Assembly: GCA_977017645.1 (NCBI GenBank)
Contig: OZ360257.1
Coordinates: 14,508,001-14,572,000, forward strand
Length of the DNA stretch: 64,000 nt
Direction of reading: 5' to 3'
Source: Torpedo marmorata
Taxonomy: Eukaryota
Part shown: in pieces, positions 4,530 to 55,098 of the stretch
How positions within the stretch are numbered: position 1 is the stretch's first letter
Layout of the letters: each line of letters starts with the position of its first letter
Position numbers and translations under genes: made by a program
The notes under the pieces: model-generated
The model's database searches: none
Told to the model about the DNA's origin: nothing
Seen by the model: only the letters and a program-made list of their open reading frames with translations

Positions 4530-4581
4530 ATGGACGCCACGGAGATCTTCTATCCCATTATTGCTATTGTCGGCATTCCTG
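4530..4581 (+). CDS. GPR139-like class A GPCR, type A copy 1, coding exon 1 (MDATEIFYPIIAIVGIP)
   Basis: ATG at 4530; 52 nt (17 codons plus 1 nt) ending at the donor G|gtaagt (4582). Joins in frame to exon 2 at 7491 to give ...GIPANLLSIVVLSRG, a TM1 with the conserved Asn. Confidence 0.85.
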
Positions 4582-4789
4582 GTAAGTGATTTTGCTGCGA
4601 TCTCCGCCGTTTGGTTCCTGGTTGTCAGTATTCCGGAGGAGTATCCCCTCTTTACCGCGTGTAGTAATTACAGCAGATTGATCCCCGTTTCACTTACATG
4701 TTTCACTTAATTATTTCATGATTTGCTGTCTCTGTCGCCATCTGGCACAGGGCGGTTCTGACAGGGACAGAGAGAGAGAATGTTGGTCA

Positions 4790-6070
4790 GACGTCTCCCT
4801 GTCAGGATGTAAAGAATCATTGGATCCGATGTTGTTGAAGATAGGGCATGTCCAGTCATTGGAAAATAAAGCAGACGACCTCAGGGCCAGAGTGCTTCAG
4901 CAGAGGCCGGTGCGGCAAATCTTAATGGTTTACTGCCCAGAGTCCGTGCTAACAGAGAACATATCAAATGCCGCATCCGACCAGATGTTTCATCATTCAC
5001 AGACTGGTTAGGGACCTGGATTCTGGCAAGGGGATTGGGCACAGTGTACGATTTTCAGTTAATATCGGCTGGTTCACGGACGGTGGTGTAATGTCGACCA
5101 CATGTCGAACATTGGCTAGTCCTCATGCACCCCTGGGCGTCTTTTAGACCATTGTTCTTCTCGGTTTACTTCTACGAATGCGTGACTCGGTAGGACAAAG
5201 TCTAAAATAACTACAAATGCGCTGACAATGCAACATTAGTGTGTCGTATCGAAAGGGGTAATGAGTCAGCATACAGGATGCAGATTTAAAGTCACACACA
5301 AAGTCACCAAAACACAGGAGCTGATTGTGGAATACAAGAATATAAAAGCAGATCAGAGGTGGAGAGATTTCACCAATTTCAAATCATGGGAGTCACAAAC
5401 TTGAAGGAACTTTTCTGGACCTTACGTACTTATTTCATCGTGAAGAAAGTACTTCAACTCCTCCACATACTCAGGAGTTTGCCGAGGTTTACAGTCAGAT
5501 TTGGTAAACTTCGGCAGATGTGCAGCGTAAATTGTTCGGACCGGCTGCATTACGGCTGGCAATGGGGATACCAATATCTATAAGTGAAAATGCCCTGCAA
5601 AGGTTACTTTACACAGAACAGTTCATCATAGCAAACCTCTCCCCATTATCGAGAAAATCTACATGGAACGCTGCTTTATGAGAACAGCAGCAATCATCAA
5701 GCATTTACCCCACCCACACCACTCTGCTCTCGATGCTGCCATCAGGAAAGAGGTGTAGGTGCCACAATACTGGTACTACCATTATCAAGAACAGTGGGTA
5801 TCCCTCCTTCATCAGACTGCTAAACAGACTCAATCAGGGACTCTTTTAAGGACTCTTACTTTGCACAATATTAACGACAATATTTATGTTTTTCTATATT
5901 TACACTTTCAGTTTGTTTACATTTATTTCTTTATTTACGTCTCTCTTTTGTGTGCATATATTTTCCTTGAGAACATTTTGCACAATCTATTAGTACAAAT
6001 TCTGCCTTGTCCACAGGAAAAAATAAAATCATCGCATGGTTGCATTTGATGTCATGTATGTACGCTGAAA
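4790..6070 (+). mobile_element. Internally deleted Rex/Babar-like LINE in the type A intron (homologues at ~22230-23570, 38570-39885; variant at 52600-53250)
   Basis: VQSLENKADDLRAR (endonuclease start) followed by RT C-terminal remnants (DESAYR, TKTQELI, LPSGKR) and a 3' tail. Confidence 0.7.
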
Positions 6071-7490
6071 CTTGAAGGACATGACACTCACCAGCTGCTC
6101 TCCTTTTGGTGGGACAATTAATGCAAATGGTTTGTGGTCGGAGCTAACTTTCAGTTTGGATATTCCACAGATTGGTGGTGTCGGATGTTGAATATGCAGT
6201 CGATAAATCCCGTTCCTTCGCACATCGTACTCCATCTATTAAACATATAACGCAGAACATTATAACACCTCCACGATGTTGTTCTGACCTCTATAAACCT
6301 CATCCACAACATCCAGGTTTCTCCACCTCACACCTATGACGATCTATTTTACTAACGACCATGTACCTATATCAGTGTGTTTTAAAAGTCGATGCCTTAC
6401 CCGCCTCCACCACCAAACCATGCAATAAATTCCAGGCGCCCACCTTTTTGGAGTAAAACAAAAACGTATCTCCGACATCTCCCCTACACGCTCCTCCCCT
6501 CAACTGAATCAGATGTCATCTGCTTTTCCCAATGGAAAGGTTTTGGCTTTCCAACCCATCCAGACTCCTTATAATCTTGTATACCCCTATTAATTCACCT
6601 CTTCCCCTTTGTCGCTCAGAGAAAGCCATACCCCTGTCATCTTACCTTCATACGAGAAGTTCTCCAATCCAGGTATCACCTTTCAAACCCTCTCCAGAGC
6701 ATCTTCATCCTTCCTATAATGAGGCGACCGGAACTGAAAGTAACCTGTTGAACTGTTTATCGTCACGTGGTGGGATAAAATTGAAAAAGGTATTGTTTTG
6801 CTTGCTATCCAGGCAAATCAACCCATATAAATTACAGCAGGCAGTGCAAGGATAACAAATAGTACTGGTGATACTGTTACCATAAAAGTATAGCATGTCG
6901 TGTTAAAGACAATGGTGCTGTTAAGCAGATCACGGTATTACATTTTACTCATGAGAAGTCCATTCACGAGCTGGACTAAGTGCCCTTGAATCTAGCGTCG
7001 TGTGATTGCCAACTTGTTCTTCTTCTGCTCGACGGGAGGGAGAAGGAGAATCTGTTATGGGGTGGAATGGATATGTTAACATTATCTACACACGAGGCGG
7101 TGAGAGGTATGGACGGAGTCGATGGACGGGATGTTGGCTTGTTTTAAAACCCTGACATGCGTTCATTATTCTCCGTAGTTTGTTAAGACCCTGAGCAGAG
7201 CATTTTCCAACACAATCAGTGAATCACGCGCACTGGATGCTTACTATTCTGCATCTGCATACAAGATTCAGGTTCAATGGTGCCATGCGGAATTTCCTCA
7301 GCATCTGAGGCAGTGGAGGCGTTGCTGCGCTTTCCGTTCCGTACCACCAAGAGTAATGTCAGCAAATGCATAGATTACAGGAGCATGCCAATGACCCGGT
7401 TAGGTTATTCCTATGATTCCATTGTTAAAATCTCGTTAAAGCTGTTGGCCTGTTTTTCTGGTAGTTTACTGGTATTCCATCTTGTTACAG

Positions 7491-8395
7491 CTAACCTGCT
7501 CTCCATTGTAGTCCTGTCCCGGGGAACGTGCGGCCTCTCCAAAGGAGTGATTCGTTACATGGTAACCATGGCAGTTGCAGACACAATGGTCTGTGTGTTT
7601 AACGTTACTTTGGGAAACGTCTTCCGCTATTATTTTCCACGTTCCTTCCTGTCACGCACCTCCACTTGTCGTCTGATTACCATCATACAGAAAGCCAGCG
7701 TACAATTCTCTGTCTCGGTCACGGTATCATTTACAATCGACCGCTTCATTGCGATTTGTTGCCAGAAATTGAAAACAAAATATTGTACCAAAAGGAACGC
7801 CACGGTAATTCTAACGACGGTGTGTGTGCTTAGCTTTTTGATGCATATTCCAGCTTATTTCCAGTATGAACGCCAATACGTTGTGGGTGATGTCCAGTGG
7901 GGCTGCAGCACTATAACACAATATGTTTCTTCACCAGCATGGCAGACTTACAGATGGTTGTCCAATCTCTTGGTATCATATGTGCCGCTGCCGCTTATGT
8001 TGCTGTTAAATTCACTCACCGCCCGAAACATTTTACAGGTCAGCAGAGCTCGGAGGGCTTTGAAGCGCCGTGTGGACGGTGAGGTCCGTGATCCCGAGAT
8101 GACGAGCCGAAGAACGTCCATTATTTTGCTCTTCGCCATCTCTGGGACGTTCATAGCGTTGTGGACACCAGTTACGATAATTGACGTTTGTTTCCATCTC
8201 ACTGCAAATTTTGCAGTCGACGCCCCGACTTCAATCTATCTGGCCATTAGAATCGCACTTCTGCTAATGTATTTGAGTTCCTGTACAAACACTTGTGTTT
8301 ATGCATTGACACAGAGGAGATTCCGAAAGGAAGTGGCGAAGGTGTTAAAATATCCATTTATTGTCCTTGTTCGGTTTTTTAACCCAATTAAGTAG
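7491..8395 (+). CDS. GPR139-like class A GPCR, type A copy 1, exon 2 (spliced protein ~318 aa)
   Basis: Acceptor cttgttacag|CT at 7490/7491. Open frame with MAVAD (TM2), Cys at the top of TM3, DRF, WGC in ECL2, WTP (TM6), NTCVY (NPxxY variant) and a helix 8 FRKEV. The ANLL..LSRG.CGLSK pattern is typical of GPR139-like receptors. Confidence 0.9.
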
Positions 8396-8419
8396 CCACG
8401 ATGAATCAGAGTTCATGGA

Positions 8420-11057: not shown

Positions 11058-13790
11058 ACGAAGCGACTAGTAATTATACAGATTGAAAATATACTATCCT
11101 GTACTTGAAGAGTTTGTGGACCTGGGAAGCCATTTAACAACAGCTAAAACGGATTTGTACACTAATTTTAATGCACAGATTCTCCAACCGGCGCAATGCT
11201 CTTGTCAATTGGATAGACGCGTTGGCTTTGCTGAAGTAAGTGTGCAACTTTAAAGAAACAACTCCCAAGTGTTGGAGTTGTATTTCCATTTTTAACTTAT
11301 CACAATGCGGTGACATAAAGTTTAGTGAATTTATGGAAATAGTTGATCTTGTAGCTTTGCATGTGGATAAATAATTTTAATGGGCGGTGCGCAGCCAAAC
11401 CGGACACTCAGAAAGAATCCCCGCAGGCCGATCCAATATACGGAAGTATGGGTGCAATCCTGCTTCATAACAAAGCGATTTTGCACCGCTCACAAAAAAT
11501 GTAAGGTCCAGACTGGTGGCCTTTGTTTCCTCGACGTACCTACAGCTAAATGACTTGTTAGAGCAGGAGCGGAGCAACTTGATTGATCATATTGCAAACA
11601 GCAGCTACATAGACCTTCCCACTGCTCCACGCAGCTGCAGAGCGCGATAATAACCAGGCTGAAATACCATCCCAGGATCCAACATTATCCACAATTTTCA
11701 GAGGATTTGAGCATGTCTCATCGTCTGATTTTAACTACAATCGTGTCTACTATGCAGGAATAGCTTCCAAAGAAAGACTTTATAGAAACGCCAACAAGAA
11801 CAGCGTTTGGAGAGCTATGCGAAAAATTCCTAGGGCCTGGATGAATTTGCATTTGGAGAGAAGGATATTGATTAGGGATCGTTAGCATAACTTTGGTGAT
11901 GGCAGAGCATATCCAACGGATTTGGGGTGTCTTTCGAGGTGCGGCTGAAGGTGTCGATGAGTGTAGTGCAGGTGACGAATGTGACAAGAATTTCTGCACA
12001 CCCTTGACAAGTTTCTACATAATGCACTGGATCAAAACGACCACAGTTCATGGGATCTCAGGCAATTCGCAAGTTTGATTTCAATTTTGGCCTGGTAATA
12101 GAAGGTAATTGTTTATGATTGAACATAGAAAATAGAACAGTGTCGTGCTCACGGAATAACCTACACTACCAAGGGCCTAGAATTTCCCTCCGATGTAAAG
12201 CTAAATTTTTCTCAGTTCTATGTACATATCTAATCGTCTCTTAAACGATCCTCTTGTATCACTCCCAACACCGTTGCCGGCCGCACATTCCATTCACCCA
12301 CACCTCCACTCTCTGAGTGAAGAACGTACCTCTAACATCCCACTTGTACGTACTGCTAAGCCCCTTTCAACCTCATCCCCTACGCCGCCCCCCAGATGGA
12401 CGTTTGTCTTTGCGACTGGAAGCGTATCTTCCATCGGGAGAAAATGTCAAACTATAGGATGAACTATGCGGGTTNNNNNNNNNNNNNNNNNNNNNNNNNN
12501 NNNNNNNNNNNNNNNNNNNNNNNNNNNNNNNNNNNNNNNNNNNNNNNNNNNNNNNNNNNNNNNNNNNNNNNNNNNNNNNNNNNNNNNNNNNNNNNNNNNN
12601 NNNNNNNNNNNNNNNNNNNNNNNNNNNNNNNNNNNNNNNNNNNNNNNNNNNNNNNNNNNNNNNNNNNNNNNNNNNNNNNNNNNNNNNNNNNNNNNNNNNN
12701 NNNNNNNNNNNNNNNNNNNNNNNNNNNNNNNNNNNNNNNNNNNNNNNNNNNNNNNNNNNNNNNNNNNNNNNNNNNNNNNNNNNNNNNNNNNNNNNNNNNN
12801 NNNNNNNNNNNNNNNNNNTTTAAATTTCAGATTCCAGGTTTATTGTCAGAATGCATACACGACATCACATACAACCCTGTGATACTTTATTCCTGCGTGC
12901 GCGGCAGAATTACCACTAAACGGTAGTGCAAAACAAAATAACTGTACACCGCATGTGCATTTAAACAAATAAAAATCTTGAAACAGACAACGAATGTGAA
13001 CAAACTGACTGCGCAATACAGAGAGAATAAAAAAGAAAAGTAAAATCAATAAAGTGCACAAGTAACAGTCCTCAAAAGAGTCCCTGATTGAGTTTGTTGT
13101 TGAGGAGTCTAATGCTGGAGGGGTAGCAGCTGTTTATTTCCATTGACTGTTCCGTGTGGATAACTGTGGCTTTCACGGTTGATCGATTTGTTTCTATTTG
13201 TCACTACATGCGCCGAGCAAAATATTGCATTGAAACGAATGTGACTGTGGCGATAGCGATGGTGTTTTATTCAAGCTGTGGAGAAATCATCCCATACTAT
13301 ATTATTTACGAACCTCGCGAAGTCACTGATAACGTTGAAGGGTCGTGTTCTGTAAAATCAAGCTTCTCCACGTCACCCATTCGGGCAGCCTTTCTCTGAC
13401 TGGAAACGGTCTTGACCCCAATTGCTCCTCATGTATTAATCTTGCTTCTAAATTCCCTGACCATGAGATACATTATACTTGCTCACCGAGTGAAGAGAGA
13501 ATTCCGAGGAAGTAAAAGGAACGGGAATCGCACTGAACCAGAGACGAGGAAACACAGGAAATCGGTAAATCTGCTGCTCGTTATTACCCGCAATTTGATT
13601 CTCTTGTGGATGGTTCAGGAGTTTATTTATTCATCATCCCATTGTACCATGACAAACCGACGGAACAGCGTTCTCCAGTCCACTGTGCAGAACAGTGCAA
13701 GTCAGGCTTTAGACATCACACACATACAGACAAATCGTTACATGTATACACTGCATGTGTACATGTTTTAAAATAAATATTCGTAATAAA
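11058..13790 (+). pseudogene. Type B GPCR pseudogene, copy 2 (5' part of exon 2 deleted)
   Basis: Exon 1 remnant at 11058-11124 with a mutated donor. Exon 2 resumes at ~13129 (SVWITVAFTVDRFVSICH...) and carries stops and frameshifts. Confidence 0.78.
12475..12818. other. Assembly gap
   Basis: Run of N. Confidence 0.99.
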
Positions 13791-13796
13791 TAGTAC

Positions 13797-13983
13797 TGTA
13801 GCCGCGTGCTACTGGAAAGAAGACACACACGCGTAGTGTAGTCAGGTTAAGCTCTGAGTTTCTATTAGGTCCCAGGCCCGACTTTTATATTTACACTGTT
13901 CCCGCCGTGTCCTCCTTTTGCAGACTTCACAACATGCATAACAAAAGCGGGTTTCCCGCGCTCGGGTACTTTCCTGCATAACA
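13797..13983 (-). repeat. 3' LTR of the Gypsy element
   Basis: Minus strand TGTT...TACA directly after the PPT; contains a TATA-like TATAAAA. Confidence 0.75.
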
Positions 13984-14569
13984 ATACCCTTCTTCCCCCC
14001 GCGCTGTCCCTGTCTGTTGGCAGCGCAGCAAGGCCAGCTCCATTTTGGGGTCGCTGGCCTTTCAGCTGCCCTTGCCGTTCACCCGCCGGTTCGCTTGTTG
14101 GGGCAAGTGCCGCTGCGCGGGTTGCTGGCCTTTGGTCGCGCTCGCCGCCCGGAGCGCCGGCTCGATCGCCGCGGTGGCGGGCCGCCCACAAGACCCACCC
14201 CCACCCCCACCCACCCCTCCAGAACCGGCGGTATTGTCCTCGTTATTGTCCTTGGTGTCTCTGCAGCCTTCGGTGGCCTGCCTCTTCGGCGTGGTGCTGG
14301 TGTCTCGACCGGGCGCGACGGGTCCAGATGTGCCGGCTTCAGCCTGTCTGTGGTGAAGAACTCCGTCTTGACTCCGACCTCCAGCTCAAACGTGGCCCCG
14401 TTGTTGCGGGTTTCTCGGAACGGACCCTCGTATGGTCTCTGAAGCGATGGACGATGTGGACCCCTGCGAATGAAAACATACTCACAGTCCTGCAGGTCTC
14501 TGGGTATGTTGGTCCTCGCGTGTCCGCGCCTGGAAGGTGGAATCGAGGACAGGTTGCCGACTCTTTCCC

Positions 14570-16782
14570 TTAGCCTGCCGAGGAACGCTGCAGAGTCGTC
14601 CTGCTGCCCGCCTGGGGATGGTACGAATTCTCCCGAGACCACCCCAGTGGAGCTCCGTAGATGAGTTCGGCCGAAGAGGTGTTGAGGTCCTCTTTGGGTG
14701 CCGTGAAGATGCTCAACAGCGCCCATGGTAGCTCGCTTACCCAGTTGGGACCTTGGAGTCTGGTCATGAGCGCGGTCTTGAGGTGCCTGTGGAAGCGCTC
14801 CACCAATCCATTGGACTGTGGATGGTAAGCTGTTGTGTGATGCAACTGGGCACCCCACAGGCTGGCGAGGTCGGACCACAGACTGGAGGTGAACTGGGCC
14901 CCTCTGTCGGATGTGATGTGGGATGGTAACCCGATCCGTGCCACCCAAGTCGAGATGAGGGCCCTGGGGAACGAGGTGTTGGACGTGTCTGCCAGCGGGA
15001 CTGCTTCTGGCCACCTGGTGAAGCGGTCGAACATGGTGAACAGATAGCAGAAAATCTGGGATACCGGCAAGGGTCCTACTATGTCCACGTGGATGTGGTC
15101 GAACCTTCGTTCTGCGAGCTCGAAGTGCTGAGGTGGGGTCTTGGTGTGCTGCTGTACCTTGTTTGTTTGGCATTGCGTGCACGCCTTCGCCCACCCGCTG
15201 ACCTGTTTCCGCAATCCATGCCACTTATATTTGCTGGCCACCAGCCGGACCGTGGTCCTGATGGATGGGAGAGCCAGTCCATGGATGGAGCCGAAAACCT
15301 GTCGTCTCCAAGCCGCCGGAACGATGGGTCTGACCTGACCGGTGGCCACGTCGCACAGGATGGTGGTGTTACCTGTGCCAACCGGGATGTCCTGGAGCTG
15401 CAGTCCCGATATGGCAGTCCTGTACTGGGGCATCTCTTCGTCTTTCTGCTGTGCCTCCGCCAGTGACATGAAGTCCTCTCCCTTTGATAGCGCGTGGATA
15501 CTTTGCCTGGACAGTGCGTCGGCCACCACGTTGTTCTTACCGGAGACGTGCCTTACATCTGTGGTGTACTCCGAGATGTAAGACAGGTGTCGTTGCTGGC
15601 GGGCTGACCAGGGGTCCGAGATCTTAGCCAAGGCGAAAGTCAGGGGCTTGTGATCTGTGAAAGCAGTGAAGGACCTGCCCTCTAGGAAGTACCTGAAGTG
15701 GCAGATGGCTAAGTACAGCGCCAGTAGCTCTCTGTCGAAAGCGCTGTACTTCAGTTCTGGAGGCCGCAGATGTTTGCTGAAGAAAGCCAGCGGCCGCAAA
15801 CGTCCTTCGATCTGCTGCTCCAGAACTCCGCCGATCGCCATTCCTGAGGCATCCACTGTCAGGGCCGTTGGAGCGTCAGACCTGGGAGGTGCCAGGAGAG
15901 TGGTGTCCGCCAGGGCTTCCTTGGCCTTCACGACGGCCTCCGCTGACTCCTCGTCCCAGGTGATGTCCTTCACCTTGCCTGCCATCCGGGCGAACAAGGG
16001 CCGCATGATCTGGGCAGCTGAGGGGATGAACCTGTGATAGAAATTGATCATCCCCACGAACTCCTGTAGTCCCTTGGTCGTGTTGGGTCTGGGGAATCTC
16101 CGGATGTCCTCCACTTTACTGGGTAGCGGTGTGGCTCCTTCCCTCGTTATCCTGTGGCCCAGGAAGTCGATGGCCTGCAATCCGAACTGACATTTGGCTG
16201 GGTTGATCGTCAGGCCGAACTTGTTCAGTCCAGTGTAGAGGTTGCGGAGGTGCGTCATATGCTCCTGTTGTTTCCTGCTCGCCACCAGGATGTCGTCAAG
16301 GTACACGAAGGTGCCATCCAGGTCTCGGCCCACCGCGTCCATGCGTCGCTGGAAGGTCTGTGCGGCGTTCATTTTCGCGAACGGCATCCGGAGGAATTCG
16401 AAGAGGCCAAACGTGGTGATGGTGGCGGTCTTGGGGATATCCTCGGGGTGTACCGGGATATGATGATATCCCCGGGCGAGGTGCACCTTGGAGAAGATCC
16501 TTGCCCCATGCAAGTTTGCCGCAAAGTCATGGATGTGCGGCATGGGGTACTGATGCGGTGTCGTGACCTCGTTGAGCCGGCGGTAGTCGCCGCATGGTCT
16601 CCAGCCCCCAGTTGCTTTGGGTACCATGTGCAGGGGAGAAACCCATGGGCTGTCCGACCGCCGTGCGATGCCGAGCTCCTCCCGCTTCCTGAATTCCTCC
16701 TTCACCAGCTTGAGCTTCTCCGGAGGAAGGCGTCTTGCCCTTGCGTGGAGCGGCGGGCCCTGGGTCAGGATGTGGTGCTGTA
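14570..16782 (-). CDS. pol: Gypsy pol fragment (reverse transcriptase - RNase H - integrase)
   Basis: WRPCGDYRRLN, FEFLRMPF and YLDD (RT); TVDAS...DRELLA...TDHKPL (RNase H); C..CQ zinc finger, HVDIVGPL, SDRGAQF and NGLVERFHR (DDE integrase). Confidence 0.9.
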
Positions 16783-16925
16783 ACGACCTCAGCAATTATG
16801 ATTCGACTTAATATATTTGCTGCAATGAAAATCTGTGACGAATGAGTATCATCATGTGTTCATGTGTCATCAGAGGTTTACTTTATTTATAAGTGAGGCA
16901 TTATTGTGAAGTCCAGTAAACTTAA

Positions 16926-19900
16926 ACGAAGCGACCAGTAATTTTACAGATTGAAAAAATACTATCCTATTCTTCAACAGTTGGTGGACATGGTAACATA
17001 ACGTAAGCTAAAACGGTTTTTTACTCGAATTTTAATACATAGCTCTTCCACCGGCGCAAAGCTCTTGTCAATTGAATAGACGCGTTGGTTTTGCTGAGTA
17101 ACATTAAAGAAACAACTCGCAAGTGTTGGAGTTGTATTTCCATTTTTAACTTATCAAAATGCGGTGACATAAAGTTTAGTGAATTTATGGAAATAGTTGA
17201 TCTTGCTGTTTTGCATGTGGATAAATAGTTTTTATGGGCGGTACGCAGCCAAACCGGACACTCAGAAAGAATCCCCGCAGGCAGATCCAATATACGGAAG
17301 TATGGGTGTAATGCTGCTTCATAACAAAGCGATTTTACACCGCTCATGATAACTTGAAGGCCCAGCCAGGTGGCCTTTGTTTCGTCGACTTACCTACAGC
17401 TAAAGGACACGTTAAAGCAGGAGTGGAGTAGCCTGATTCCTCATATTGCAAACAGCAGGTACATGGAGCTTCCCACTGCTCCACGCAGCTGCAGAGCACG
17501 ATATAAACTAGGCTGCAATACCATCCCAGGATCCAAAATTATCCACAATTTTCAGACGCTTTGAGCATGTCTCATCGTCTGATTTTAACTTCCACAGTGC
17601 CTACTATGCAGGAAGACCTTCTAAAGAAAAAAATCATATCAACGCCAACAAGAACACCGTCTGGAAATCTATTGGAAAATTTCCGAGGGCCAGGATGAAT
17701 ATCCACTTGGAGAGAAGGATATTGATTGGGCATAGTTAGCATAACTTTATTGATGGAAGAGCCTATCTAACCGATTTGGGGTTTCTTTCGAGGAGCGGCT
17801 AAAGGTGTCAATGAGAGTAGTGCAGGTGACAAAGTAGACAAGAATTTCTGCACACCCTTTACAATTTCTACATAATGCACTTGTTCAAAACGACCACAGT
17901 TCTTGTGATCTCAGGCAATTCGCAAGTTTGATTTCAATATTGGCCTGGTAATAGAAGGTAATTGTTTATGATGGAACATAGAAAATAGAACAGTGTAACC
18001 TACACTACCAAGTGCCAAGAATTTCCCTCCTGTGTAACGCTCAATTTTTTTTCTGTTCTATGTACGTATCTAATCGTCACTTAAAATATCATCTTGTACC
18101 TCTCCTAACACTGTTGCCGGCCGCACATTCCATGCACCCACCCCTCCAATCTCTGAGTGAAGAACGTACCTCTAACATCCCACTTGTACGTACTGTTAAG
18201 CACCTTTCAACCTCATACCCACGGCACCTCCCTGATGGATGGTTCTCTTTGCGATTAGAAGCATATCTTCCATCGGGAGAAAAGGTCAAACTATAGGATG
18301 AAATCTGCGGGTTCATNNNNNNNNNNNNNNNNNNNNNNNNNNNNNNNNNNNNNNNNNNNNNNNNNNNNNNNNNNNNNNNNNNNNNNNNNNNNNNNNNNNN
18401 NNNNNNNNNNNNNNNNNNNNNNNNNNNNNNNNNNNNNNNNNNNNNNNNNNNNNNNNNNNNNNNNNNNNNNNNNNNNNNNNNNNNNNNNNNNNNNNNNNNN
18501 NNNNNNNNNNNNNNNNNNNNNNNNNNNNNNNNNNNNNNNNNNNNNNNNNNNNNNNNNNNNNNNNNNNNNNNNNNNNNAGTTTTCAGAAATATTGTCAGAG
18601 TGCATACATGACATCACATACAACCCTGTGATACATTTTTCCTGCGGGCGCGGCAGAATTACCACTAATTGGTAGTGCAGAAGAAAATAACTGTACACAG
18701 CATATGCATTAAAACAAATAAAGAAGTTGAAACAGAAAACGAATGTGAACAAACTGACTGTGCAATACAGAGAGAATAAAAAAGAAAAGTAAAATCAATA
18801 AAGTGCACAAGAAAGAGTCCTTAAATGAGTCTCTGATTGAGTTTGTTGTTGAGGAGTCTGATGGTGGAGGGGTAGCAGCTGTTCCTTAACCTGGTGGTGC
18901 GAGTCTTGTGGCTTGTGTCTTGTAACTTGTGGGTGGAGATTGTGCAAGTTTAAGATCGACACTTTTCCTCAGGACCATGCATCATGTTCAGCTGAGCGTG
19001 ATCAAGCTTTGGCCCCTGATGTCAGGAGAGATGGATCTGATCTCGGCTCCCATACAACATCAGCACAATAAAAGTAAAGGCGCACAAGTCTCAGCTGAGC
19101 GAACGCTCGAAGTCCAATCGCGCTAACACCACTATCTTAATACTACAAGACACACGTGGTTCAATAATTATATAATTGCAGCAAATAAAGAAATTTCTGT
19201 TGTTCTGTGCCTCAGATCAGAGAACATTATTAATCTTAATCTCCGTGTTCTGCAGCTAATTTGCTGCCAATCTTCATTCTGCTCCCTGGAAATTGTGGCC
19301 TCTCTAAATGCATCCCCCGGTATTTGCTGCGAACGGCAGTAGCTGACTGAATGGTTGTTACATTTGATCTGATTTTGTGCGAGATTATTGATGGATATTT
19401 TACACACTCGTTCTTCAATCCGACACCTGTTTGTAGAGTTATTCTGACCATGCTGTTTATTTCCATTGACTGTTCCGTGTGGATAACTGTTCCTTTCACG
19501 GTCGATCGATTTGTTTCTATTTGTCACTAAATGCAACGAGCAAAATATTGCATTGAAAACTGTAGCGATAGTGATGGTATTTTACTCAATCTGTGGAGAA
19601 AACATCCCATACTATTTAATTTACGAACTTCGCGAAGTGTCCTGTTCTGTAAAATGAAGCTTATTCACGTCACCCATTCGGGCAGCTTTTCTCTGCTGGA
19701 AACAGTCTTGACCCCATTTGCTCCTAATGTATTGATTTACTTCTAAGTTCCCTGACCATGAGACACATTATACTTGCTGACCGAGTGACGAGCGAATTCC
19801 GAGGAAGTAACAGGAACGGGAATCGCACTCACCCAGAGACGACGAAACACAGGAAATCGAAAAATCTGCTGCTCGTCATATCTCGCAACTTGATCCTCTT

Positions 19901-20090
19901 GTGGATGGTTCAGGAGTTCGTTTGTTCGTCATCCGATTGTACCTTGACAAACCGACGGAACAGCGTTCTCCAGTCCACGCTGCAGAACAGTGCAAATCAG
20001 GCTTTAGACATCACACACATACTGACAAATCGTTACATGCATACACTGCAAATGCACATATATTAAAATAAATATTCGTAATAAATAGTA
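16926..20090 (+). pseudogene. Type B GPCR pseudogene, copy 3
   Basis: Exon 1 remnant at 16926-16992; acceptor tgcag at 19255; exon 2 homologous to copy 1 with several stops (e.g. GAC TGA, CAC TAA). Confidence 0.8.
18317..18577. other. Assembly gap
   Basis: Run of N. Confidence 0.99.
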
Positions 20091-21972
20091 GAGTCACGGA
20101 GAGTTGTTTTAGCAGTCATTCAGCATTCTCACTGCCCGTGGCAAGAAGCTGTTTCTCAGCGTGGTGGTTCTGGCTCTGATACTCCTGCATCTTTGTTCCC
20201 GGCGGGAGTAACTGGAAGATGCTGCGTGCGGGCTGAGAAGGGCTTCACTTATGTCGCGAGCCCTCAGTAAACAAAGGACCCGGTAATTCTATCGATGGGA
20301 TGTGGAGGGCTGGGGAGAGGTTGGAGGGCGACACCGGCAAATTCCCTGCCGCTTTTCTGGTCCTTTGGTTTGACCACCTATCCGATGCTCCACATCAACT
20401 GTGATGCATCCGGTCAGGACGCTCTCGATAGAGTTCCTGCAGACAGCTGACAGAATGATGGCCCGTACCCTTGTCCGTCTCAGTCTTCGCATGTAGTGCA
20501 GTCGCTGTTGGACCTTCCTGACAATTGAGGAGATGTTATGTGTCCAAAATAGATGACTTCATAAGTGGAATCCGAGGAACGTGATATATTCAGTGGAGCA
20601 TCAGGGGGACTTCTTGACGAGTGGTGAGAGGGTGGTCGAGAAACCAGCTAAAGTGGTGAATGAGAGCTATATTTTGATATTAAAGAAAGATTTGGATAGG
20701 TACATGGATTGGAGAGGTATGGAGGGATGTAGCCCTGGTGCATGTCAGTGGATCTATGCAGAATTTTACTTCGGCACGAATTAGATGGGCGGAAGATCCC
20801 GTTTCTCTCCTGTTATATTCTTTGGTTAAGAAATTAAGGGATGTGGGAAAGTTAAATGGAGAGCAATGTAGATCAGCTATGTTGTTTTAAATTTACATCG
20901 ATTTATATGTTTTTATATTCTATATTTACAAATTACAAACAGGACTGGCCACCGGATCTGCAAATTATTTATCCAAAATCGTAGCTGATATATTTTTGCG
21001 CGTCTTTGCCTCGCTAAGAGGTCCCGAACAGAAATGTTGACTGACCATTACTCTCCACAGACGCTGCCTGACTCGTTGGGAACATAGGCACATCAGAGCT
21101 CAATTCAGCACCTTCAGCCTACGATGTTGTACAGAAATATGTAAATGTACTCCACAGCAATCTAATTTTCCTCAACTCACACCCACAACCCTCTTATGAG
21201 ACCTTCCAGTTACTAGATATTAAAGAAGGATTCCAGCATCTGCAGTTCTTGTGATTCTATTTACTTATATTTTAATTAGTCACACGAATCTCCTTCATCT
21301 CCCTCCTCCTTATCTCCATCCCAGGATGGGGGCTCTCATCGCACCATCACCGCCTTGTCCCGTTGGTTTTTGTTGGTGTGGCGCATTCAATCGAAATGTG
21401 TAAACCTCGCCAGTAACTTTCCTGACCCTTGGTTCAGTTTCGCTTAACGTTCTGTTCTCTGTGGCAGTCGTTGAAATCAAGGGAGAATTTCACCTGAACC
21501 TGAACACGACAGATCTTGGGTTGATCGTGGATGGCACTTTGAAAATTAGATTCGCAAGTCTAAAAATGCAACTGACTATGATAGGAAAGCTAATTGAAGC
21601 GACGACGTCAGTGCAGACGCATTGAAGTGTGACCAAATCTCCTCAGAGACGAGGATAAATCGAAGCAAAGGGAGATGTATAAACGCGACACTCCGGTGCC
21701 ACGGTTCAAGGTCACGTGTGGCAGCGAGCTCGCACCTGAACCTTGTTTATTGCGATCCCTCGGGTCATTTACTGTGGGCCGAGCTAACGCAGTCCATAAA
21801 TTTAGAATGAACTGGTACTGTCTGTTAAATCAAGTATGTGGAGATGTTATGTAAGTTAATGTCCCAGTGGAAACGGCTGTCCTATAAATTGGGCTTCACA
21901 GTGAATCTATTCGTTCTGGCACCTGGACCTCTGCTGTATACAAAACGTTCGTATCCTCAACCGGTGCCACGA

Positions 21973-22024
21973 ATGGACGCCACGGAGATATTCTATCCCA
22001 TTCTTGCAATTGTTGGCATTCCTG
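21973..22024 (+). CDS. GPR139-like GPCR type A copy 2, exon 1
   Basis: ATG at 21973, MDATEIFYPILAIVGIP, donor gtaagt at 22025. Confidence 0.85.
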
Positions 22025-25010: not shown

Positions 25011-25912
25011 CTAACCTGCTCTCCATTGTGGTCCTGTCCCGGGGAATGTGCGGCCTCTCCAAAGGAGTGACTCGTTACATGGTAACCATGGCAGTTGCAG
25101 ACACAATGGTCTGTGTGTTTAACGTTATGTTGGGAAACGTCTTCCGCTATCATTTACCGCGTTCCATCCTGGCACACACCTCCACTTGCCGTCTGGCAGC
25201 CGTCATAGAGAGAACCAGCGTACAATTCTCTGTCTCGTCCACGGTATCATTCACAATCGACCGCTTCATTGCCATTTGTTGCCAGAAATTGAAAACAAAA
25301 TATTGTACCAAAAGGAACGCCGCGGTGATTCTAACGACGGTGTGTGTGCTTAGTTTTTTGATGCACATTCCAGCTTATTTCCAGTATGAACTCCAGTACG
25401 TTGTGGGTGATGTCCAATGGGGCTGCCGTACTATAACACAATATATTTCTTCACCAGCATGGCAGACTTACAGATGGTTGTCCAATATCTCGGTATCATA
25501 TGTGCCACTGCCGCTGATGTTGCTGTTGAATTCTCTCACCGCCAGACACATTTTACAGGTCAGCAGAGCTCGGAAGGCTTTGAAGCGCCGTGTGGACGGT
25601 GAGGTCCGTGATCCCGAGATGACGAGCCGGAGGACGTCCATTATCTTGCTTTTCGCCATCTCTGGGTCCTTCATAGCGTTGTGGACACCGGTTACGATAA
25701 TTGGCCTTTTTTCACAATTCACCGCACAGTTTGCGATCGACGCCCGGAAATCACTGTACCTGGCAATTAGAATCTCGATTCTGCTGATGTATTTGAGTTC
25801 CTGTGCAAACACTTGTGTTTATGCATTGACACAGAGGAGATTCCGGGAGGAAGTGAGGAAGTTGTTAAAATATCCATTTATTGTCCTAGTTCGGTTTTTT
25901 CAAACCAATTAA
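25011..25912 (+). CDS. GPR139-like GPCR type A copy 2, exon 2 (~317 aa spliced)
   Basis: Acceptor ttacag at 25010; intact 7TM frame (ORF 25028-25912) with DRF, WTP and NTCVY. Confidence 0.9.
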
Positions 25913-33377: not shown

Positions 33378-33429
33378 ATGGACGCCACGGAGATCTTCTA
33401 TCCCATTCTTGCAATTGTCGGCATTCCTG
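33378..33429 (+). CDS. GPR139-like GPCR type A copy 3, exon 1
   Basis: ATG at 33378, MDATEIFYPILAIVGIP, donor gtaagt at 33430. Confidence 0.85.
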
Positions 33430-34073: not shown

Positions 34074-34966
34074 CTAACCTGCTCTCCATTGTAGTCCTGT
34101 CCCGGGGAATGTGCGGCCTCTCCAAAGGAGTGACTCGTTACATGGTAACCATGGCAGTTGCAGACACAATGGTCTGTGTGTTTAACGTTACTTTGGGAAA
34201 CGTCTTCCGTTATAATTTTCCGCGTTCCATCCTGGCACACACGTCCACTTGCCGTCTGGCAGCCGTCATGCAGAAAACCAGCGTGCAATTCTCTGTCTTG
34301 TCCACGGTATCATTCACAATCGACCGCTTCATTGCTATTTGTTGCCAGAAATTTAAAACTAAATATTGTACCAAAAGGAACGCCGCGGTGATTCTAACGA
34401 CGGTGTGTGTACTTAGCTTTTTGATGCACATTCCAGCTTATTTCCAGTATGAACTCCAGTACGTTGTGGGTGATGTCCAATGGGGCTGCCGTACTATAAC
34501 ACAATATATTTCTTCACCAGCATGGCAGACTTACAGATGGTTGTCCAATATCTTGGTATCATACGTGCCACTGCCGCTGATGTTGCTGTTGAATTCTCTC
34601 ACCGCCCGACACATTTTACAGGTCAGCAGAGCTCGGAGGGCTTTGAAGCGACGTGTGGACGGTGAGGTCCGTGATCCCGAGATGACGAGCCGGAGGACGT
34701 CCATTATCTTGCTTTTCGCCATCTCTGGGTCCTTCATTGCATTGTGGACACCGGTTATGATAATTGGCCTTTTTTCCCAATTCACCACAGGGTTTGCAAT
34801 CGACGACCGGAAGTCACTGTACCTGGCAATTAGAATCTCGATTCTGCTGATGTATTTGAGTTCCTGTGCAAACACTTGTGTTTATGTATGGACACAGAGG
34901 AGATTCCGGGAGGAAGTGTCGAAGTTGTTAAAATATCCATTTATTGTCCTAGTTCGGTTTTTCTAA
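34074..34966 (+). CDS. GPR139-like GPCR type A copy 3, exon 2 (~314 aa spliced)
   Basis: Acceptor ttacag at 34073; intact frame to TAA at 34966, ending 3 residues earlier than copy 2. Confidence 0.88.
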
Positions 34967-38318: not shown

Positions 38319-41300
38319 ATGGACGCCACGGAGATCTTCTATCCCATTCTTGCAATTGTCGTCATCCCTGGTACGTGCTTTTTCTGGGATCTCCGACGTT
38401 TGGTTCCAGTTTGTCCGTATTCAGGAGGAGTATCCCATCTTTACCGCGTGTAGTAATTACTGCAGATTGGTCCACGTTTCATTTACATGGAGAGAACTGT
38501 TTCATGATTTGCTGCCTCTGCCACCATCTGCCACAGAGCGGCTCTGACTGGGACAGAAAAAGACAACGTTGGTCAGACGTCGGCCTGTCAGAATGAGAAT
38601 AATCATTGGACCTGAAGTTGTTGAATATAAGGCATGTCCTGTCGTTGGAAAATAAGACAGACGACCTCAGAGCCAGAGTGCTTCAGCAGCGACAGGTGAG
38701 ACAAATCTCAGTGGTTTACTGCCCTGAGTCAGGGCTAACAGAGAACATATCAGACGCCGCGTTCCGACCAGAGGTTATCATCATTCACAGACTGGACAGG
38801 GACCCGGATTCTGGCAGAGGCATTGGGCACAGTGTGTGGTTTTCAGTTAATATTATCTGGTTCACGGATGTTGGGGTAATGTCGACCACATGTCGAACAT
38901 TGTCTAGTCCTCCTGCACCCTGGGCGTCTTTTAGACCATTGCTCTACTCGCTTTACATCTACGAATGCGTGACTCGGTAGGACATAAACTAAATTAATCA
39001 CAAATACGCTGGCAATACAACATTAGTGTGTTGTATCGAAAGGGGAGATGAGTCAGCATACAGGATGGAGATTGAAAACATGACTGAATGGTGTATCAAC
39101 AACTACCTCTCACTCAAGGTCACCAAAACCCAAGAGCTGATTCTAGGAAATAAGAAAGGAAAAGAGGTGGAGAGATTCCACAAATTTCAAATCATGGGAG
39201 TCACAAACTCGAAGGACATTTTCTGGACACAACATACATATGTCGTCGAGAAGAAAGTACGTCAACTCCTCCACATACTCTGGAGTTTGCCGAGGTTTGC
39301 AGTCAGAGTTGGTAAACTTCGGCAGATGTGTAGCGTAAATTGTTCGGACCGGCTGCATTACGGCTGGCAATGGGGATACCAATATCTATAAGCGCAAAAG
39401 CCCTTCAAATGTTACTTTACACAGAACAGTACATCAGAAGCAAATCTCTCCCCATCATCGAGAAAATCTACATGGAACGCTGCAGTCGGAGAGCAGCAGC
39501 AATCATCAAGAATCTTCCCCAACCACACCACTCTGCTCTCGATGCTGCCATCAGGAAAGAGGTGTAGCTGCCACAATAGTGGTACTACCATGACCAAGAA
39601 CAGTGGGTATCCCTCCCCCATCAGACTGCTAAACAGACTCAATCAGAGACTCTTTCAAGGACTCTTATTTGCACATTATGAATGACAACATTTATTTTTT
39701 CAGTATTTACACATTCAGTTTGTTTACATTTCTTTCTTTGCTTTCTTTTGTGTCCAGTTATTTTCCTTGAGAACTGTTCACACAATCGATAAGTAGAAAT
39801 TCTGCCTTGTCCACAGGGAAAAAAAAAGAATCTCATGGTTGCATTTGATGTCATGTATGTACGCTGACAATATACTTGAAACTTGAAGGGGATGACACTC
39901 ACCAGCTGCTCTCCTTTTGGTGGGACAATTCATGCAAATGGTTTGTGGTCGGAGCCAACTTTCAGTTCGGATGTTCCACGGATTCGTGGTATCGGATGTT
40001 GAATATGCAGTCGACCAATCCAGTTTTCCTTCGCACATCGTAATCCATCTATTAAACATATAACACCGAACAGTACAACACCTCCACGATGTTGTGATGA
40101 CCTCTGTATACCTCATCTACAACAACCGATTTTCTCCACCTCCAACCATAACTATCTATTTTTCTAACACTCATGCACCTATCTAAGTGTGTTTTAAATA
40201 TCGCTGCCTTACCCGCCTTCACCACTAAGCCGTGCAATAAATTCCAGGGGCCCAACATTTTTGAGTAAAACAAAAACGTATCTCCGACATCTCCTCTAAA
40301 CTCTCCTCTACTCACCTAAATCAGATTTCATATGATATTTGCTATCTTTGCCCCAAGGGAAAAGTGTTGGCTGCCCAACCCATCCAGACTCCTCATAATC
40401 ATGTATACCCCTATTAATGCACCTCTTACTCTTTGTCGCTCCGAGAAAGCCCTAGCCCTGCAACCGTCCTTCACATGACGAGTTCTCCAATCCACGCATC
40501 AACTTTTCACCCTCTCCAGAGTATCTTCATCCTTCCTATAATGAGGAAACCGGAACTGAAACAACGTATTGAACTATTGATCCTCACGTGTACGGAGAAA
40601 AGTGAAAAGGTATTGTTTTGAGCGCTATCCAGTCAAATCAACCCACACAGTATACAGCAGACAGTGTAAGGGTAAAACATATGACAGGCGATAGTGTTAT
40701 AATGAAAGTACAACATGTCGTGTTAAAGTCAAAAGTGTTGTTAAGCAGTGTAAGGCATTACCTTTACTCATGAGCGGGCTATTCAAGAGCCTGTCAGCAG
40801 GAAACAAAGTTCCATTGAATCTAGTGCGGAGCGGTTTCTGAAACTCGTGCATTTTTAGTCAGACGGGAGTGAGAAGGGGATAGTGCGCTCGGGGTGGAAT
40901 TGATACTTTGACATGTAGACTGATTAATTATCTCCGATGTGGCCGGAGACACGAACGGAGTCGATGGAGGGAAGAGAGGCCTGTTTGATAATCCTCAATT
41001 GCGTTCATTACTCTCCTTAGTTTCCTGAAACCCCGTGAAGAACAGTTTCCACGGTAATCTGCGATACACAGGCACCGGACAGTTACTACTGTGCATCTGC
41101 ACACAACGGTCAGGGTCAACGGGGGCATGCCGAATTTTCTCATCTTCTGAGGAAATGGAGGCGTTGCTGCGTTTTCAGTTCAGTTGCGCCAGTGTAATGT
41201 CAGAAACGGAATCACTTACAGGATCTTAAAAATGATCAGGTGAGATTGTTGCCAAATATTCCACAGTTAAAATCACGTTAAAGCTGTTGGCCTGTTTTTC

Positions 41301-42246
41301 TGGTAGTTTCCTGGTTTTCCATCTTGTTACAGGTAACCTGCTCTCCATTGTGGTCCTGTCCCGGTGAATGTTCGGCCTCTCCAAAGGAGTGATTCGTTAC
41401 ATGGTAACCATGGCAGTTGCAGACACAATGGTCTGGGTGTTTAACGTTATGGTGGGAAACGTCCTCCTCTATCATTTTCCGGGTTCATTCCTGGCACACA
41501 CCTCCACTTGCCGTCTTACAGCCATCATGCAGTGATCCAGCGTGCAATTCTCTGTCTGGGCCACGGTGTCATTCACAATCGACCGCTTCATTGCATTTGT
41601 TGCCAAAGATTCAAAACAGAATATTGTACCAAAAGAAACGCCGCGGTGGTTCCAACGACTGTGTCTGTGCTGAGCTTTGTGATGCACATTCCAGCTTATT
41701 TCCGCTATGAGCCCCATTACGTTGTGTGTGATGTCCAATGGGGCTGCCGTACCGTACCACAATACATTAATTCACCAGTATGGCAGACTTACAGATAGAT
41801 GTCTAAACTCATGTTACTACTGGTGCCACTGCCGCTGATGTTGCTGTTGAATTCTCTCACTGCCCGACACATTGTACTGGTCAGCAGAGCTCGGAGAGCT
41901 TTGAAGCGCCGTGGGGACGGCGAGGTGAGTGATCCCGAGATGACGAACGGGAGGACGTCCATTATTTTGCTCTTCGCCACCTCTGGCACCTTCATAGCGT
42001 TTGTGGACACCGGTTACGATAATTGAACTATGTTTCCAACTCACCTCCAGTTTTGCGATCGACGCCCCGACGTCACTGTATCTGGCAATTAGAATCGCGA
42101 TCCTGCTGATGTATTTGAGTTCCTGTACAAACACTTGTGTTTATGTATTGACACAGAGGAGATTCCGGGAGGAAGTGAAGAAACTGGTGAAATATCCATT
42201 TATTGTCCTTGTTCGGTTTTTAAAACAAATTAGGCAGCCACAATGA
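38319..42246 (+). pseudogene. GPR139-like GPCR type A copy 4, pseudogene
   Basis: Exon 1 at 38319-38370 (donor gtacgt); exon 2 from 41333. In-frame TGA at 41365 and 41533, TAG near 41796, and frameshifts near 41594 and 42000. Confidence 0.9.
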
Positions 42247-50645: not shown

Positions 50646-50794
50646 GTTAGGAAAATAAGGGATGTGGGAAAGTTTAATGGAGCGCAATGCAGATCAGATT
50701 TATTTTCATTTTATAGAGGTTTTATATTCTTATTTACACGTTAGAAACATGACTTGCCACCGGATCTGCTAATTATTTATCAAAAATCATAGCT

Positions 50795-52336: not shown

Positions 52337-52397
52337 ATGCCACGAATACAAGCCACGGAGATCTTCTATCCAATTCTTGCAATTGTTGGCATTCCTG
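52337..52397 (+). CDS. GPR139-like GPCR type A copy 5, exon 1 (MPRIQATEIFYPILAIVGIP)
   Basis: The ATG used by other copies is ATA here; an in-frame ATG lies 3 codons upstream at 52337. Donor gtaagt at 52398. Confidence 0.75.
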
Positions 52398-54196
52398 GTA
52401 AGTGATTTTGCTGCGATCTCCGCCGTTTGGTTCCTGGTTGTCCGTATTCCGGAGTAGTATCCACTCTTTACCGCGTGTACTAATCACTGCACATTGATCC
52501 GATTTTAATTTACGCGAGAACTGTTGCATGATTTGCTGCTTCTGCCGTCACCCGACACAGAGCGGTCCTGACTGGGATCAAGAGAGAGAAAGTTGGTCAG
52601 CCGTCGCCCTGTCAGGATTTGAAGAATCATTTAACCTGAAATTGTTGAAGGTGGGCAATGTCCAGTCATTGGAAAATAAAACCGGCGACCTCAGAGCAAA
52701 GCTGTTTATCACACACTGGTGAGACAAATCTCGGTTGGTTGCTGTCCTGAGACGTGGCTCACAAAGAACACAACGGACTCTACGATCCGTCGAGATGTTT
52801 TCATCATTCACAGACTGGACGTGAACCTGGATTCTGGCAGGGTGAGAGGGCATGGTGCGCGCATTTCAGTTAATATCCGTTGGTGCATGGACGTTCGGGT
52901 TATGTCGCCGCCTGTTCCATTGCCTCATAGCAAATACCCATCTAATGAAAACCCTTCAATATACCCCGAGATTTCTCATCAGTGATTCTCTCCGGTGTCT
53001 ATCTCCTTCCCGATGACGATTACAAACAGGCACTTGCGGAGCTGCAGAGGGTGGTCAGTAAACAAGCGACGGCCCATCCCGAGTCACCTCAAATCACAGT
53101 CGGTGACTTCAACCGGGCCCCTCTGAAGAAACCCCAACAGAATTATCACTAGCACGTAACCTGCTGTACCAGAGGTACCAGCAAATTTGATCAATGCGAC
53201 GACAACATGAGGAAGACCTGTCGTTCTTTCACGACACCGCATTGTAGTGTTTGCTGTCCTCCCCATCTAAATCCCTCATCATCTTGTCTACCCCCAATAA
53301 TTCACCTCTTACCCTTCGTCGCTGCAAAGAGAAAAACCCTAGATCTGTCAGCCTTCCTTCATATGAAATGTTCTCCAATCCAGGCAACACCTTTCCACCC
53401 TCTCCAGACCACCAACATCCTATAAGCAGGCGTCCGGAACTGAACGCAACGTATTGAACTGTTTATCGTCAGCTGTACGGAGAAAAGTGAAAAGGCGTTG
53501 TTTTGCGATCTATCCAGGCAAATCAACCCACACAAAATACAGCAGACAGTTCATGGATAAACATATTACAGGTGATAGTGATACAATTAAATACAGCATA
53601 CCGAGTTAAAGACAAAAGTGCATTACCTTTACTCATGAGATGTCCATTCAAGAGACTGGCAGCAGGAAAATAAGTGCCCTTGAATCTAGTGGGGTGCGAT
53701 TTTTTTCTAAATTCGTGCTTATTCTGCCAGACGGGACTAAGAAAGAGATAGTGCGATCGAGGTGGAATTGATACTTTAACATGTGAACTGATTATTTACC
53801 CCGAGACCGGGGGAGGTAAGGACGGAGTCGATGGACGGGAGGGTGGCCTGTTTGAAAACCCTGAATTGCTTCCATTACTCTCCCAATTTCTTAAGACCCC
53901 GAGCAGAGCAGTTTCCACACCAATCTGTGATGCACCCGCACCGGACACTTTCTATTATTTTTCTGCACACAACAGTCAGTGTCAATAAGGCCAGGCCGAA
54001 TTTCCTCAGCTTATGAGGAAGTGGAGGCGTTGCTGCATTTTCCGTTCCGTTGCGCCAGTGTAATGTCAGCAACTGCATCATTTACAGGGACATACAAATT
54101 ATACGTTAGATTATTCCCAAGGAATCCGTAGTTTAAAACCCGTTAAAGCTGTTGGATTTTTTTCTGATAATTTCCTGATTTTCCATCTTGTTACAG

Positions 54197-55098
54197 CTAA
54201 CCTGCTCTCCATTGTGGTCCTGTCCCGGGGAATGTGCGGTCTGTCCAAAGGAGTGATTCGTTACATGGTCACCATGGCTGCTGCAGGCACAATGGTCTGT
54301 GTGTTTAACGTTGCGGTAGGAAACGTCTTCCGCTATCATTTTCCCGATTTATTCCTGGCACACACCTCCACTTGTCGTCTAACATCCTTTACACAGAGAT
54401 CCAGCGTGCAATTCTCTGTCTGGGCCACGGTATCATTCACAATCGACCGCTTCATTGCCATTTGTTGCCAGAAATTGAAAACCAAATATTGTACCGAAAG
54501 AAACGCCGCGGTGATTCTAACGACGGTGTGTGTGCTTAGCTTTTTGATGCACATTCCAGCTTATTTCCAGTATGAACTCCATTACGTTGTGGGTGATGTC
54601 CAATGGGGCTGCCGTACTATAACACAATATCTTTCTTCACCAGCATGGCAGACTTACAGATGGTTGTCCAATCTCGTTTTATCATTTGTGCCACTGCCGC
54701 TGATGTTGCTGTTGAATTCTCTCACCGCCCTGCACATTTTACAGGTCAGCAGAGCTCGGAGGGCTTTGAAGCGCCGTGTGGACGGTGAGGTCCGTGATCC
54801 CGAGATGACGAGCCGAAGGACGTCCATTATTTTGCTCCTCGCCATCTCTGGGACGTTCATAGCGTTGTGGACACCGGTTACGATAATTGAACTATGTTTC
54901 CAACTCACCTCAAGTTTTGCTATCGACGCCCCGATGTCACTGTACCTGGCAATTAGAATCGCGATCCTGCTGATGTATTTGAGTTCCTGTACAAACACTT
55001 TAGTTTATGCATTGACACAGAGGAGATTCCGGGAGGAAGTGACGAAGCTGTTAAAATATCCATTTATTGTCCTAGGTCGGTTTTTTAAAACCAATTAA
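54197..55098 (+). CDS. GPR139-like GPCR type A copy 5, exon 2 (~320 aa spliced)
   Basis: Acceptor ttacag at 54196; intact 7TM frame (ORF 54214-55098). TM2 reads MAAAG instead of MAVAD. Confidence 0.87.

Follow-up and report, generated by a model that had tools for sequence, protein, structure and literature searches.

GPR139 and GPR142 are sister to protostome receptors for peptides with aromatic ends (PMC8557429, PMC8514136, PMC12208981). Activation of GPR139 by Trp and Phe needs residues F3.33, H5.43, W6.48 and N7.38 (PMC5430874), and two extra subtypes, GPR210A and GPR210B, were described beside GPR139 and GPR142 in fishes and coelacanth, sharks not being included (Rinne et al. 2019, PMC6504862). 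The nematode srw genes arose through rapid birth and death from the FMRFamide/myosuppressin receptor group and were proposed to detect environmental peptides, unlike true neuropeptide receptors, which stayed one-to-one (PMC2576165). Expansion of a class A receptor of non-olfactory origin into a repertoire is thus a known kind of system. This study concerns 64,000 nucleotides of Torpedo marmorata (assembly GCA_977017645.1, contig OZ360257.1, positions 14,508,001 to 14,572,000, forward strand; "the window" is this whole stretch), which hold a tandem array of G-protein-coupled receptor (GPCR) genes of class A and their relics. With a probability of roughly 55%, we read it as one array belonging to a large family of rhodopsin-type GPCRs in elasmobranchs that would descend from a GPR139/GPR142-like gene and form a ligand-diversified chemosensory repertoire.

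Organization of the array

Screening of the full 64 kb by tblastn and self-alignment revealed receptor units on the forward strand exclusively, in the order B1-A1-B2-retroelement-B3-A2-B4-A3-A4-A5-B5 (Table 1). A sequence-only reading of the same DNA had placed a cluster at 4530..55098; the cluster was real but the array proved wider, beginning near 350 and reaching 58030 or beyond, with B1 and B5 lying beyond the earlier limits. Its five type A paralogs on one strand, four intact (A1, A2, A3 and A5) and one pseudogene (A4), were borne out by exon structure, open frames and the lesions of A4 (stop codons at 41365, 41533 and 41796; one nucleotide deleted near 41593; the reading frame shifted again near 42000). 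Each A unit consisted of a first exon of 52-61 nt, a phase-1 intron (GT-AG, 644-2986 nt) that splits the first transmembrane helix (TM1), and a second exon of about 900 nt. Copies of A exon 2 were mutually 86-96% identical, and self-alignment further distinguished the units by kilobase deletions and insertions.

All four intact exon-2 frames matched Pfam 7tm_1 (E 1e-19 to 4e-25, 71-89 bits, for a curated cut-off of 30.5). Judged by this match, by the helices of a structural model and by core motifs (N1.50, D2.50 in three of four proteins, D-R-F, P5.50, W6.48, P6.50, N7.49 and Y7.53), the window genes are class A (rhodopsin-like) GPCRs. No Pfam match to the OR, TAAR, V1R, V2R or T2R families was found in the window at E<=0.001, nor did any of these occur among the 120 matches listed in the family search described below. 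In A5 the usual start codon was lost, an in-frame ATG three codons upstream being kept, and position 2.50 carried Gly, where 98% of the family has Asp. This unit may be decaying or have altered signalling.

An elasmobranch family and its GPR139-like relatives

With the A2 protein as query, 485 of 2301 candidate proteins passed a threshold of E<=1e-10. In the best 120, 119 were named and all of these came from elasmobranchs, with no chimaera among them; the automatic name GPR139 was attached to 104 and assorted other receptor names to 15. Narcine bancroftii, an electric ray, provided the best matches (up to 81%), six close relatives lying on one contig. Counted as 90%-identity clusters within these best 120 of 485, at least 26 were present in Heterodontus (10 contigs), at least 23 in Heptranchias (11 contigs) and at least 23 in Pristiophorus, figures that isoforms may inflate and the restriction to 120 deflates. 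An exhaustive search yielded 90 clusters (50% identity) at E<=1e-30. A recognisable exon-1 peptide started only 37 of the 124 database proteins examined; many family models in databases probably miss the small first exon or display unrelated N-termini.

A quick tree of 116 rows displayed deep subfamilies common to sharks and rays, together with younger species-level expansions (starred clades in Mustelus, in Pristiophorus and in Narcine plus window), and a careful tree of 44 rows gave the family a support of 97/91. Both trees were built without true GPR139 or GPR142 and had one long sequence as sole outgroup. Window proteins were nested among Narcine proteins with full support in both, which by itself would point to an electric ray as the most likely source; a topology test did not reject window-only monophyly (p=0.096), so that the duplications may lie on either side of the split from Narcine. 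On these comparisons the genes belong to a large elasmobranch GPCR family with clustered birth and death. Paralog clusters, pseudogenes and a variable pocket (see below) agree with the earlier proposal of a birth-and-death family with repertoire-like variation. The same proposal had considered that the family may be lineage-specific, which did not hold since it spans sharks and rays, 18 species being represented among the best 120 of 485.

Human GPR139 was the best match among solved structures, both with a single sequence (50.7 versus 43.7 bits) and with a 61-sequence profile (84.2 bits versus 62.8 for the next solved structure). A fold search added little, GPR139 and the mu-opioid receptor being tied (E 1.7e-9 each). 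Atlas neighbours were named GPR139 and FMRFamide receptor-like, some of them carrying Srw/Srx domains. By its closeness to GPR139 over other solved class A structures, the family is placed within the GPR139/GPR142/FMRFamide-receptor-like group, in agreement with the sequence-only reading. Human GPR139 (PDB 7VUG, 9M42) and presumably GPR142 share with it the class A seven-helix fold and alignable TM1-TM3 motifs; a further likeness to GPR139 is that NPxxY is missing from most family members (present in 12 of 118). Yet GPR139 is single-copy and the family multicopy, their structural alignment displayed 22% identity, and GPR139 lacked in the alignment the Cys3.25 and the long hairpin of the second extracellular loop (ECL2) found in the family. 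Aligned with GPR139, the window proteins carry, at the four positions needed for Trp/Phe activation, the residues K/R, S, W and I/L respectively, so that only the widespread W6.48 is kept. This identity and this single retained residue sustain the earlier view that the genes are not true GPR139 orthologs. Its suggestion of amino-acid sensing by analogy with GPR139 is unsupported, because the other three residues are replaced.

Two other vertebrate genes outscored GPR139 against window protein A2 (94-115 bits); both are automatically named GPR139, and no mammal occurred among their listed matches. One (group P0211) is a GPR139-like gene that each of 20 amphibian species carries once and that also occurs in sturgeon. 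The other (group P0230) occurs in sharks, bony fishes, coelacanth, amphibians and reptiles; neither mammals nor birds figure among the best 120 of 145 matches, and sharks carry it as a separate gene alongside the expanded family. The next matches of the P0211 gene were members of the elasmobranch family (32-33%), of which it was weakly placed as sister in the 44-row tree (support 94/69); this relation is not established, the alternative not being rejected (approximately unbiased test, p=0.40). Both groups share with the family a short N-terminus and the same TM1 motif. P0211 further shares the DPE[MV] motif of the third intracellular loop (13 of 20 proteins, against 75 of 118 in the family and none of 93 in P0230), and P0230 shares Cys3.25. 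Both differ from the family in being single-copy with a conserved pocket, and P0211, 28% identical to the family, keeps three of the four GPR139 Trp/Phe residues (F3.33, W6.48 and N7.39). The short N-terminus, noted in the sequence-only reading, is real but was ruled out as a sign of a chemoreceptor, because it is common to these single-copy sister genes. From their taxon range, we guess that P0211 and P0230 may be the two GPR210 subtypes. Two P0230 records were named TMEM183A isoforms, which suggests that TMEM183A is a neighbour of the P0230 gene. The database label GPR139 thus spans at least three other gene groups.

Among described repertoires, those of OR, TAAR, V1R-ORA, V2R-OlfC and T2R genes resemble the elasmobranch family in tandem clusters, pseudogenes, species-level expansions, a compact coding region and a variable pocket with a conserved cytoplasmic face. 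They differ by separate ancestry (window Pfam matches were to 7tm_1 and at most, below threshold, to Srx) and by the coding intron that the family has in TM1. Nematode srw genes likewise expanded by fast birth and death out of a group sister to GPR139/GPR142, but independently and in another phylum, and their function is speculative in PMC2576165.

Pocket variation, selection and rival explanations

The presumed ligand pocket was the most variable site class among 118 elasmobranch paralogs, with a mean pairwise identity of 0.34, i.e. 0.61 of that of other TM sites (p=1.5e-6). Within single species this ratio was 0.70 (Heterodontus), 0.64 (Heptranchias) and 0.59 (Pristiophorus). In single-copy genes the pocket was instead the most conserved class, its identity of 0.73 among 93 P0230 proteins and 0.95 among 20 P0211 proteins exceeding that of their other TM sites; these ortholog controls were sister genes, not orthologs inside the elasmobranch family. 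Core signalling motifs were nearly invariant across the family, and cysteines in TM3 (Cys3.25) and ECL2 were invariant. An AlphaFold model of A2 exon 2 (predicted local distance difference test score, pLDDT, 87.5) displayed a beta-hairpin in ECL2, which is typical of peptide receptors.

The ratio of nonsynonymous to synonymous rates (dN/dS) was 0.39-0.65 for the six pairs of intact A copies (0.36-0.60 with a second site count) and all six bootstrap intervals were below 1: intact A copies are under purifying selection. Amino-acid-variable sites of the window proteins were concentrated on the extracellular side (41 of 143, versus 23 of 168 on the cytoplasmic side, p=0.0012), the corresponding comparison of synonymous sites giving p=0.07. 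By region, pN/pS was 0.59 on the extracellular side (interval 0.40-0.87) and 0.33 on the cytoplasmic side, and reached 1.09 in extracellular loops and 0.62 in the pocket (four sequences). This pattern shows function and asymmetric constraint but does not demonstrate positive selection. The synonymous distance between A2 and A5 (0.12) was less than half that of the adjacent intron (0.27), which may hint at gene conversion in coding exons; a mosaic check, with 19 of 24 informative sites for one split, revealed no clear mosaic.

Tandem duplication multiplied a two-exon gene and in many cases carried along the dead B gene upstream of it; intact copies were retained and some died, and the extracellular half and pocket diverged with the G-protein face fixed. 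Copies would have arisen by unequal crossing-over. Each paralog would bind a different ligand or ligand set and signal through a shared G protein, so that the family would act as a repertoire of receptors in the manner of TAARs, V1Rs, FPRs or nematode srw genes. TAARs and FPRs are indeed further cases of a class A receptor expanded into a repertoire. The ligands might, less surely, come from outside the body, be peptides or peptide-like, and be read by chemosensory cells of nose, taste, gut or skin. This repertoire reading is favoured because the family is large and has undergone species-level expansions, because intact copies are under purifying selection, because the pocket varies among paralogs and is conserved in single-copy genes, and because the cytoplasmic half is conserved. 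Peptide-like ligands would suit the invariant Cys3.25 and the predicted ECL2 hairpin, the aromatic-ended peptides bound within the wider clade (PMC8557429) and the origin of nematode srw genes from that clade (PMC2576165).

Several points weigh against it. The pocket is a set of 37 presumed class A pocket positions, mapped by alignment. Its contrast with other TM sites was not significant in nine close proteins from Narcine and the window (ratio 0.90, p=0.10), nor in the four window proteins (p=0.10), and in three of four paralog sets its variability did not exceed that of the remaining extracellular-half sites, as relaxed constraint would likewise predict. No region of the four window proteins displayed a dN/dS clearly above 1 (regional pN/pS). 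As for the nose, almost all olfactory neurons of catshark are reported to be of the microvillous type and to express V2Rs robustly (PMC10116579), and the 50 most specific genes of a catshark brain-plus-olfactory library included no GPCR (PMC11979771). A specifically olfactory role is conceivable but doubtful.

A pattern of birth, death and pocket variation would be equally expected of an immune or barrier repertoire, using the same mechanism in another cell type and for another purpose: receptors on leukocytes, skin or sensory nerves for microbial or parasite peptides or damage signals, as in FPRs and MRGPRs, whose expansions are precedents. Catshark OR genes, moreover, are reported to be mostly expressed outside the nose, spleen included (PMC11979771). 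Yet no immune-specific feature was found, the nearest relatives are GPR139-like rather than chemoattractant receptors, and the C5a-receptor-like names on two of the 120 best matches are automatic labels, which leaves this possibility unlikely. Drift, in which copy number wanders in a repeat-rich, duplication-prone region, paralogs are mostly redundant and the pocket varies by relaxed constraint or through a ligand-independent role, would account for the lack of any dN/dS clearly above 1 and for a pocket no more variable than other extracellular-half sites in three of four sets; dead B copies multiplied no less readily than live A ones, and retroelement relics are many in the array. It is nevertheless distinctly unlikely in view of the purifying selection on intact copies, the nearly invariant signalling motifs and the retention of the family in 18 species, with deep subfamilies common to sharks and rays.

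Receptors for co-diversifying peptides of the animal itself, e.g. reproductive, pheromonal or neuroendocrine, would suit the peptide-receptor-like ECL2 of the predicted model, and protostome members of the clade do bind endogenous neuropeptides (PMC8557429). Such receptors are usually stable one-to-one orthologs (PMC2576165), as both sister genes are, whereas the family turns over fast, and there is little chance that it is of this kind. That the array consists of duplicated true GPR139/GPR142 orthologs still sensing Trp and Phe might be suggested by GPR139 leading the solved structures in sequence and profile scores and sharing the top rank by fold, and by its name on 104 of 120 best matches; the 22% identity, the loss of F3.33, H5.43 and N7.38, the two vertebrate genes with higher scores, and the five copies in the window and at least 23 clusters in each of three sharks, versus a single-copy GPR139, make this highly improbable. 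Two runs of N inside the array (12475-12818 and 18317-18577) raise the matter of an assembly artefact, i.e. uncollapsed alleles or misjoins at these gaps. Such an artefact, which the sequence-only reading had named as a refuting outcome, is scarcely credible, since copies differed by 3-16% and by kilobase indels (identities being 86-96% for A and 84-97% for B) and independent assemblies of other species hold several relatives per contig, such as the six of Narcine bancroftii.

The chemosensory repertoire reading has a bearing on what is known of cartilaginous fishes. These were reported to have a relative paucity of GPCRs (PMC8455134) and, for all their numerous olfactory neurons, an olfactory receptor gene count of only 43.8 (20-62) (PMC10869828). 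Surveys of shark chemoreception (PMC11979771, PMC10116579) covered only the four known families, and 34 V2R genes were reported in catshark (PMC10116579), a number comparable in order of magnitude to the clusters of the present family, at least 23-26 in each of three shark genomes (best 120 of 485). It is a tentative suggestion from sequence comparison that sharks and rays have here a fifth family of receptors for smell or other chemical senses, recruited from the GPR139/FMRFamide-receptor clade in an independent event, at least as large as their V2R repertoire and hidden under the GPR139 label. If true, the notion that only 20-62 receptor genes sustain their keen smell would need revision; a chemosensory and an immune outcome would alike name a large unstudied receptor system.

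The family sits in databases under a wrong name, and this instance appears to be undescribed. Full-text searches, whose scope left out subscription journals and several supplements, found no description of an elasmobranch expansion. The term GPR139 was absent from the main text of PMC11979771, PMC10869828 and PMC10116579; the main text of PMC10620051 and PMC8455134 contained no GPR term, and that of PMC12844162 no shark term. In 24 supplements of PMC8455134 there was one GPR142 orthogroup label and, among the first 30 of 226 rows, at least two low-taxon 7tm_1 orthogroups (157 proteins in 12 taxa; 199 in 17).

Type B relics, promoters and mobile elements

Type B is represented by five exon-1 relics, traced with a profile of 37 family exon-1 peptides, and four exon-2 relics. 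Five type B pseudogenes had been announced; five exon-1 relics agree with that number, but only four exon-2 relics were found in the window, and the B copies probably reflect one death that was copied, not five. All five exon-1 relics lacked ATG at the aligned start and displayed identical indels relative to A2. Matches of two family proteins to the four exon-2 relics in tblastn stopped short of TM7. Among B copies dN/dS was 0.49-0.84 in five pairs and 2.0 in the closest pair, five of the six intervals including 1. Because all copies share lesions, the loss of type B was probably a single event, after which the dead gene travelled along whenever the unit was duplicated. A tblastn search of the window with 210 family proteins found no fifth B exon 2; that of B5 may lie past the window end. 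At 14301, 27073, 47500 and 53643, single queries gave weak matches; these were left out of the count, being attributed to mispredicted proteins that include repeat or intron sequence.

Table 1. Receptor units and other annotated features of the window
Feature	Position	Strand	Remark
B1 exon-1 relic	396..462	+	without ATG; indels common to other B copies
B1 exon-2 relic	1785..2650	+	pseudogene, frameshifts and stop
A1 proximal promoter	4413..4447	+	17-nt conserved motif and TATA box; block in 5/5 A units
A1 exon 1	4530..4581	+	N-terminus and first half of TM1
A1 exon 2	7491..8395	+	intact, 318-aa class A GPCR
B2 exon-1 relic	11058..11124	+	splice donor lost too
B2 exon-2 relic	13129..13795	+	5' part gone
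LTR-retrotransposon internal fragment	13796..16785	-	reverse transcriptase, RNase H, integrase; outside receptor genes
B3 exon-1 relic	16926..16992	+
B3 exon-2 relic	19256..20144	+	pseudogene
A2 exon 1	21973..22024	+
A2 exon 2	25011..25912	+	intact, 317-aa GPCR
B4 exon-1 relic	29238..29304	+
B4 exon-2 relic	30642..31549	+	pseudogene; 97% identity to B3
A3 exon 1	33378..33429	+	intron shortened to 644 nt
A3 exon 2	34074..34966	+	intact, 314-aa GPCR
A4 exon 1	38319..38370	+
A4 exon 2	41333..42234	+	pseudogene, three internal stops and two frameshifts
A5 exon 1	52337..52397	+	with upstream in-frame ATG
A5 exon 2	54197..55098	+	open, 320-aa GPCR
B5 exon-1 relic	57960..58025	+	exon 2 not found within window

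A TATA box and a 17-nt motif were found upstream of exon 1 in all five A units, the invariant block lying at 21856, 33261, 38202 and 52229 in units other than A1. It displayed a TAAT core beside an Ebf-like site, some 20 nt ahead of the TATA box, and an invariant CACGTG E-box occurred further upstream in all five. The Ebf-like site was invariant as well, but chance would yield its one-mismatch pattern about 22 times in 64 kb, and the site is taken as a lead only.

The long terminal repeat (LTR) retrotransposon fragment, presumably of Gypsy type from its domain order, was single-copy with an open pol frame of 741 codons and was placed exactly at the junction of units B2 and B3; a pair of LTRs was sought for this element and not found. 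Relics of Penelope-like elements lay at 44900-48300 (two mutually inverted copies) and 27800-28410, with weak reverse transcriptase and GIY-YIG matches. Relics of long interspersed nuclear elements (58220-60000 and 61565-64000) interrupted unit B5, with a reverse transcriptase match at 59029-59346; frames near the window end, without Pfam support, are presumably an L1-like ORF1 and an endonuclease-like frame. An Rfam scan gave no match and no neighbouring host gene was recognised within the window. A GA-rich microsatellite followed four of the five A units and marked the unit boundary (9951-10037, 27458-27612, 36395-36467 and 56643-56937).

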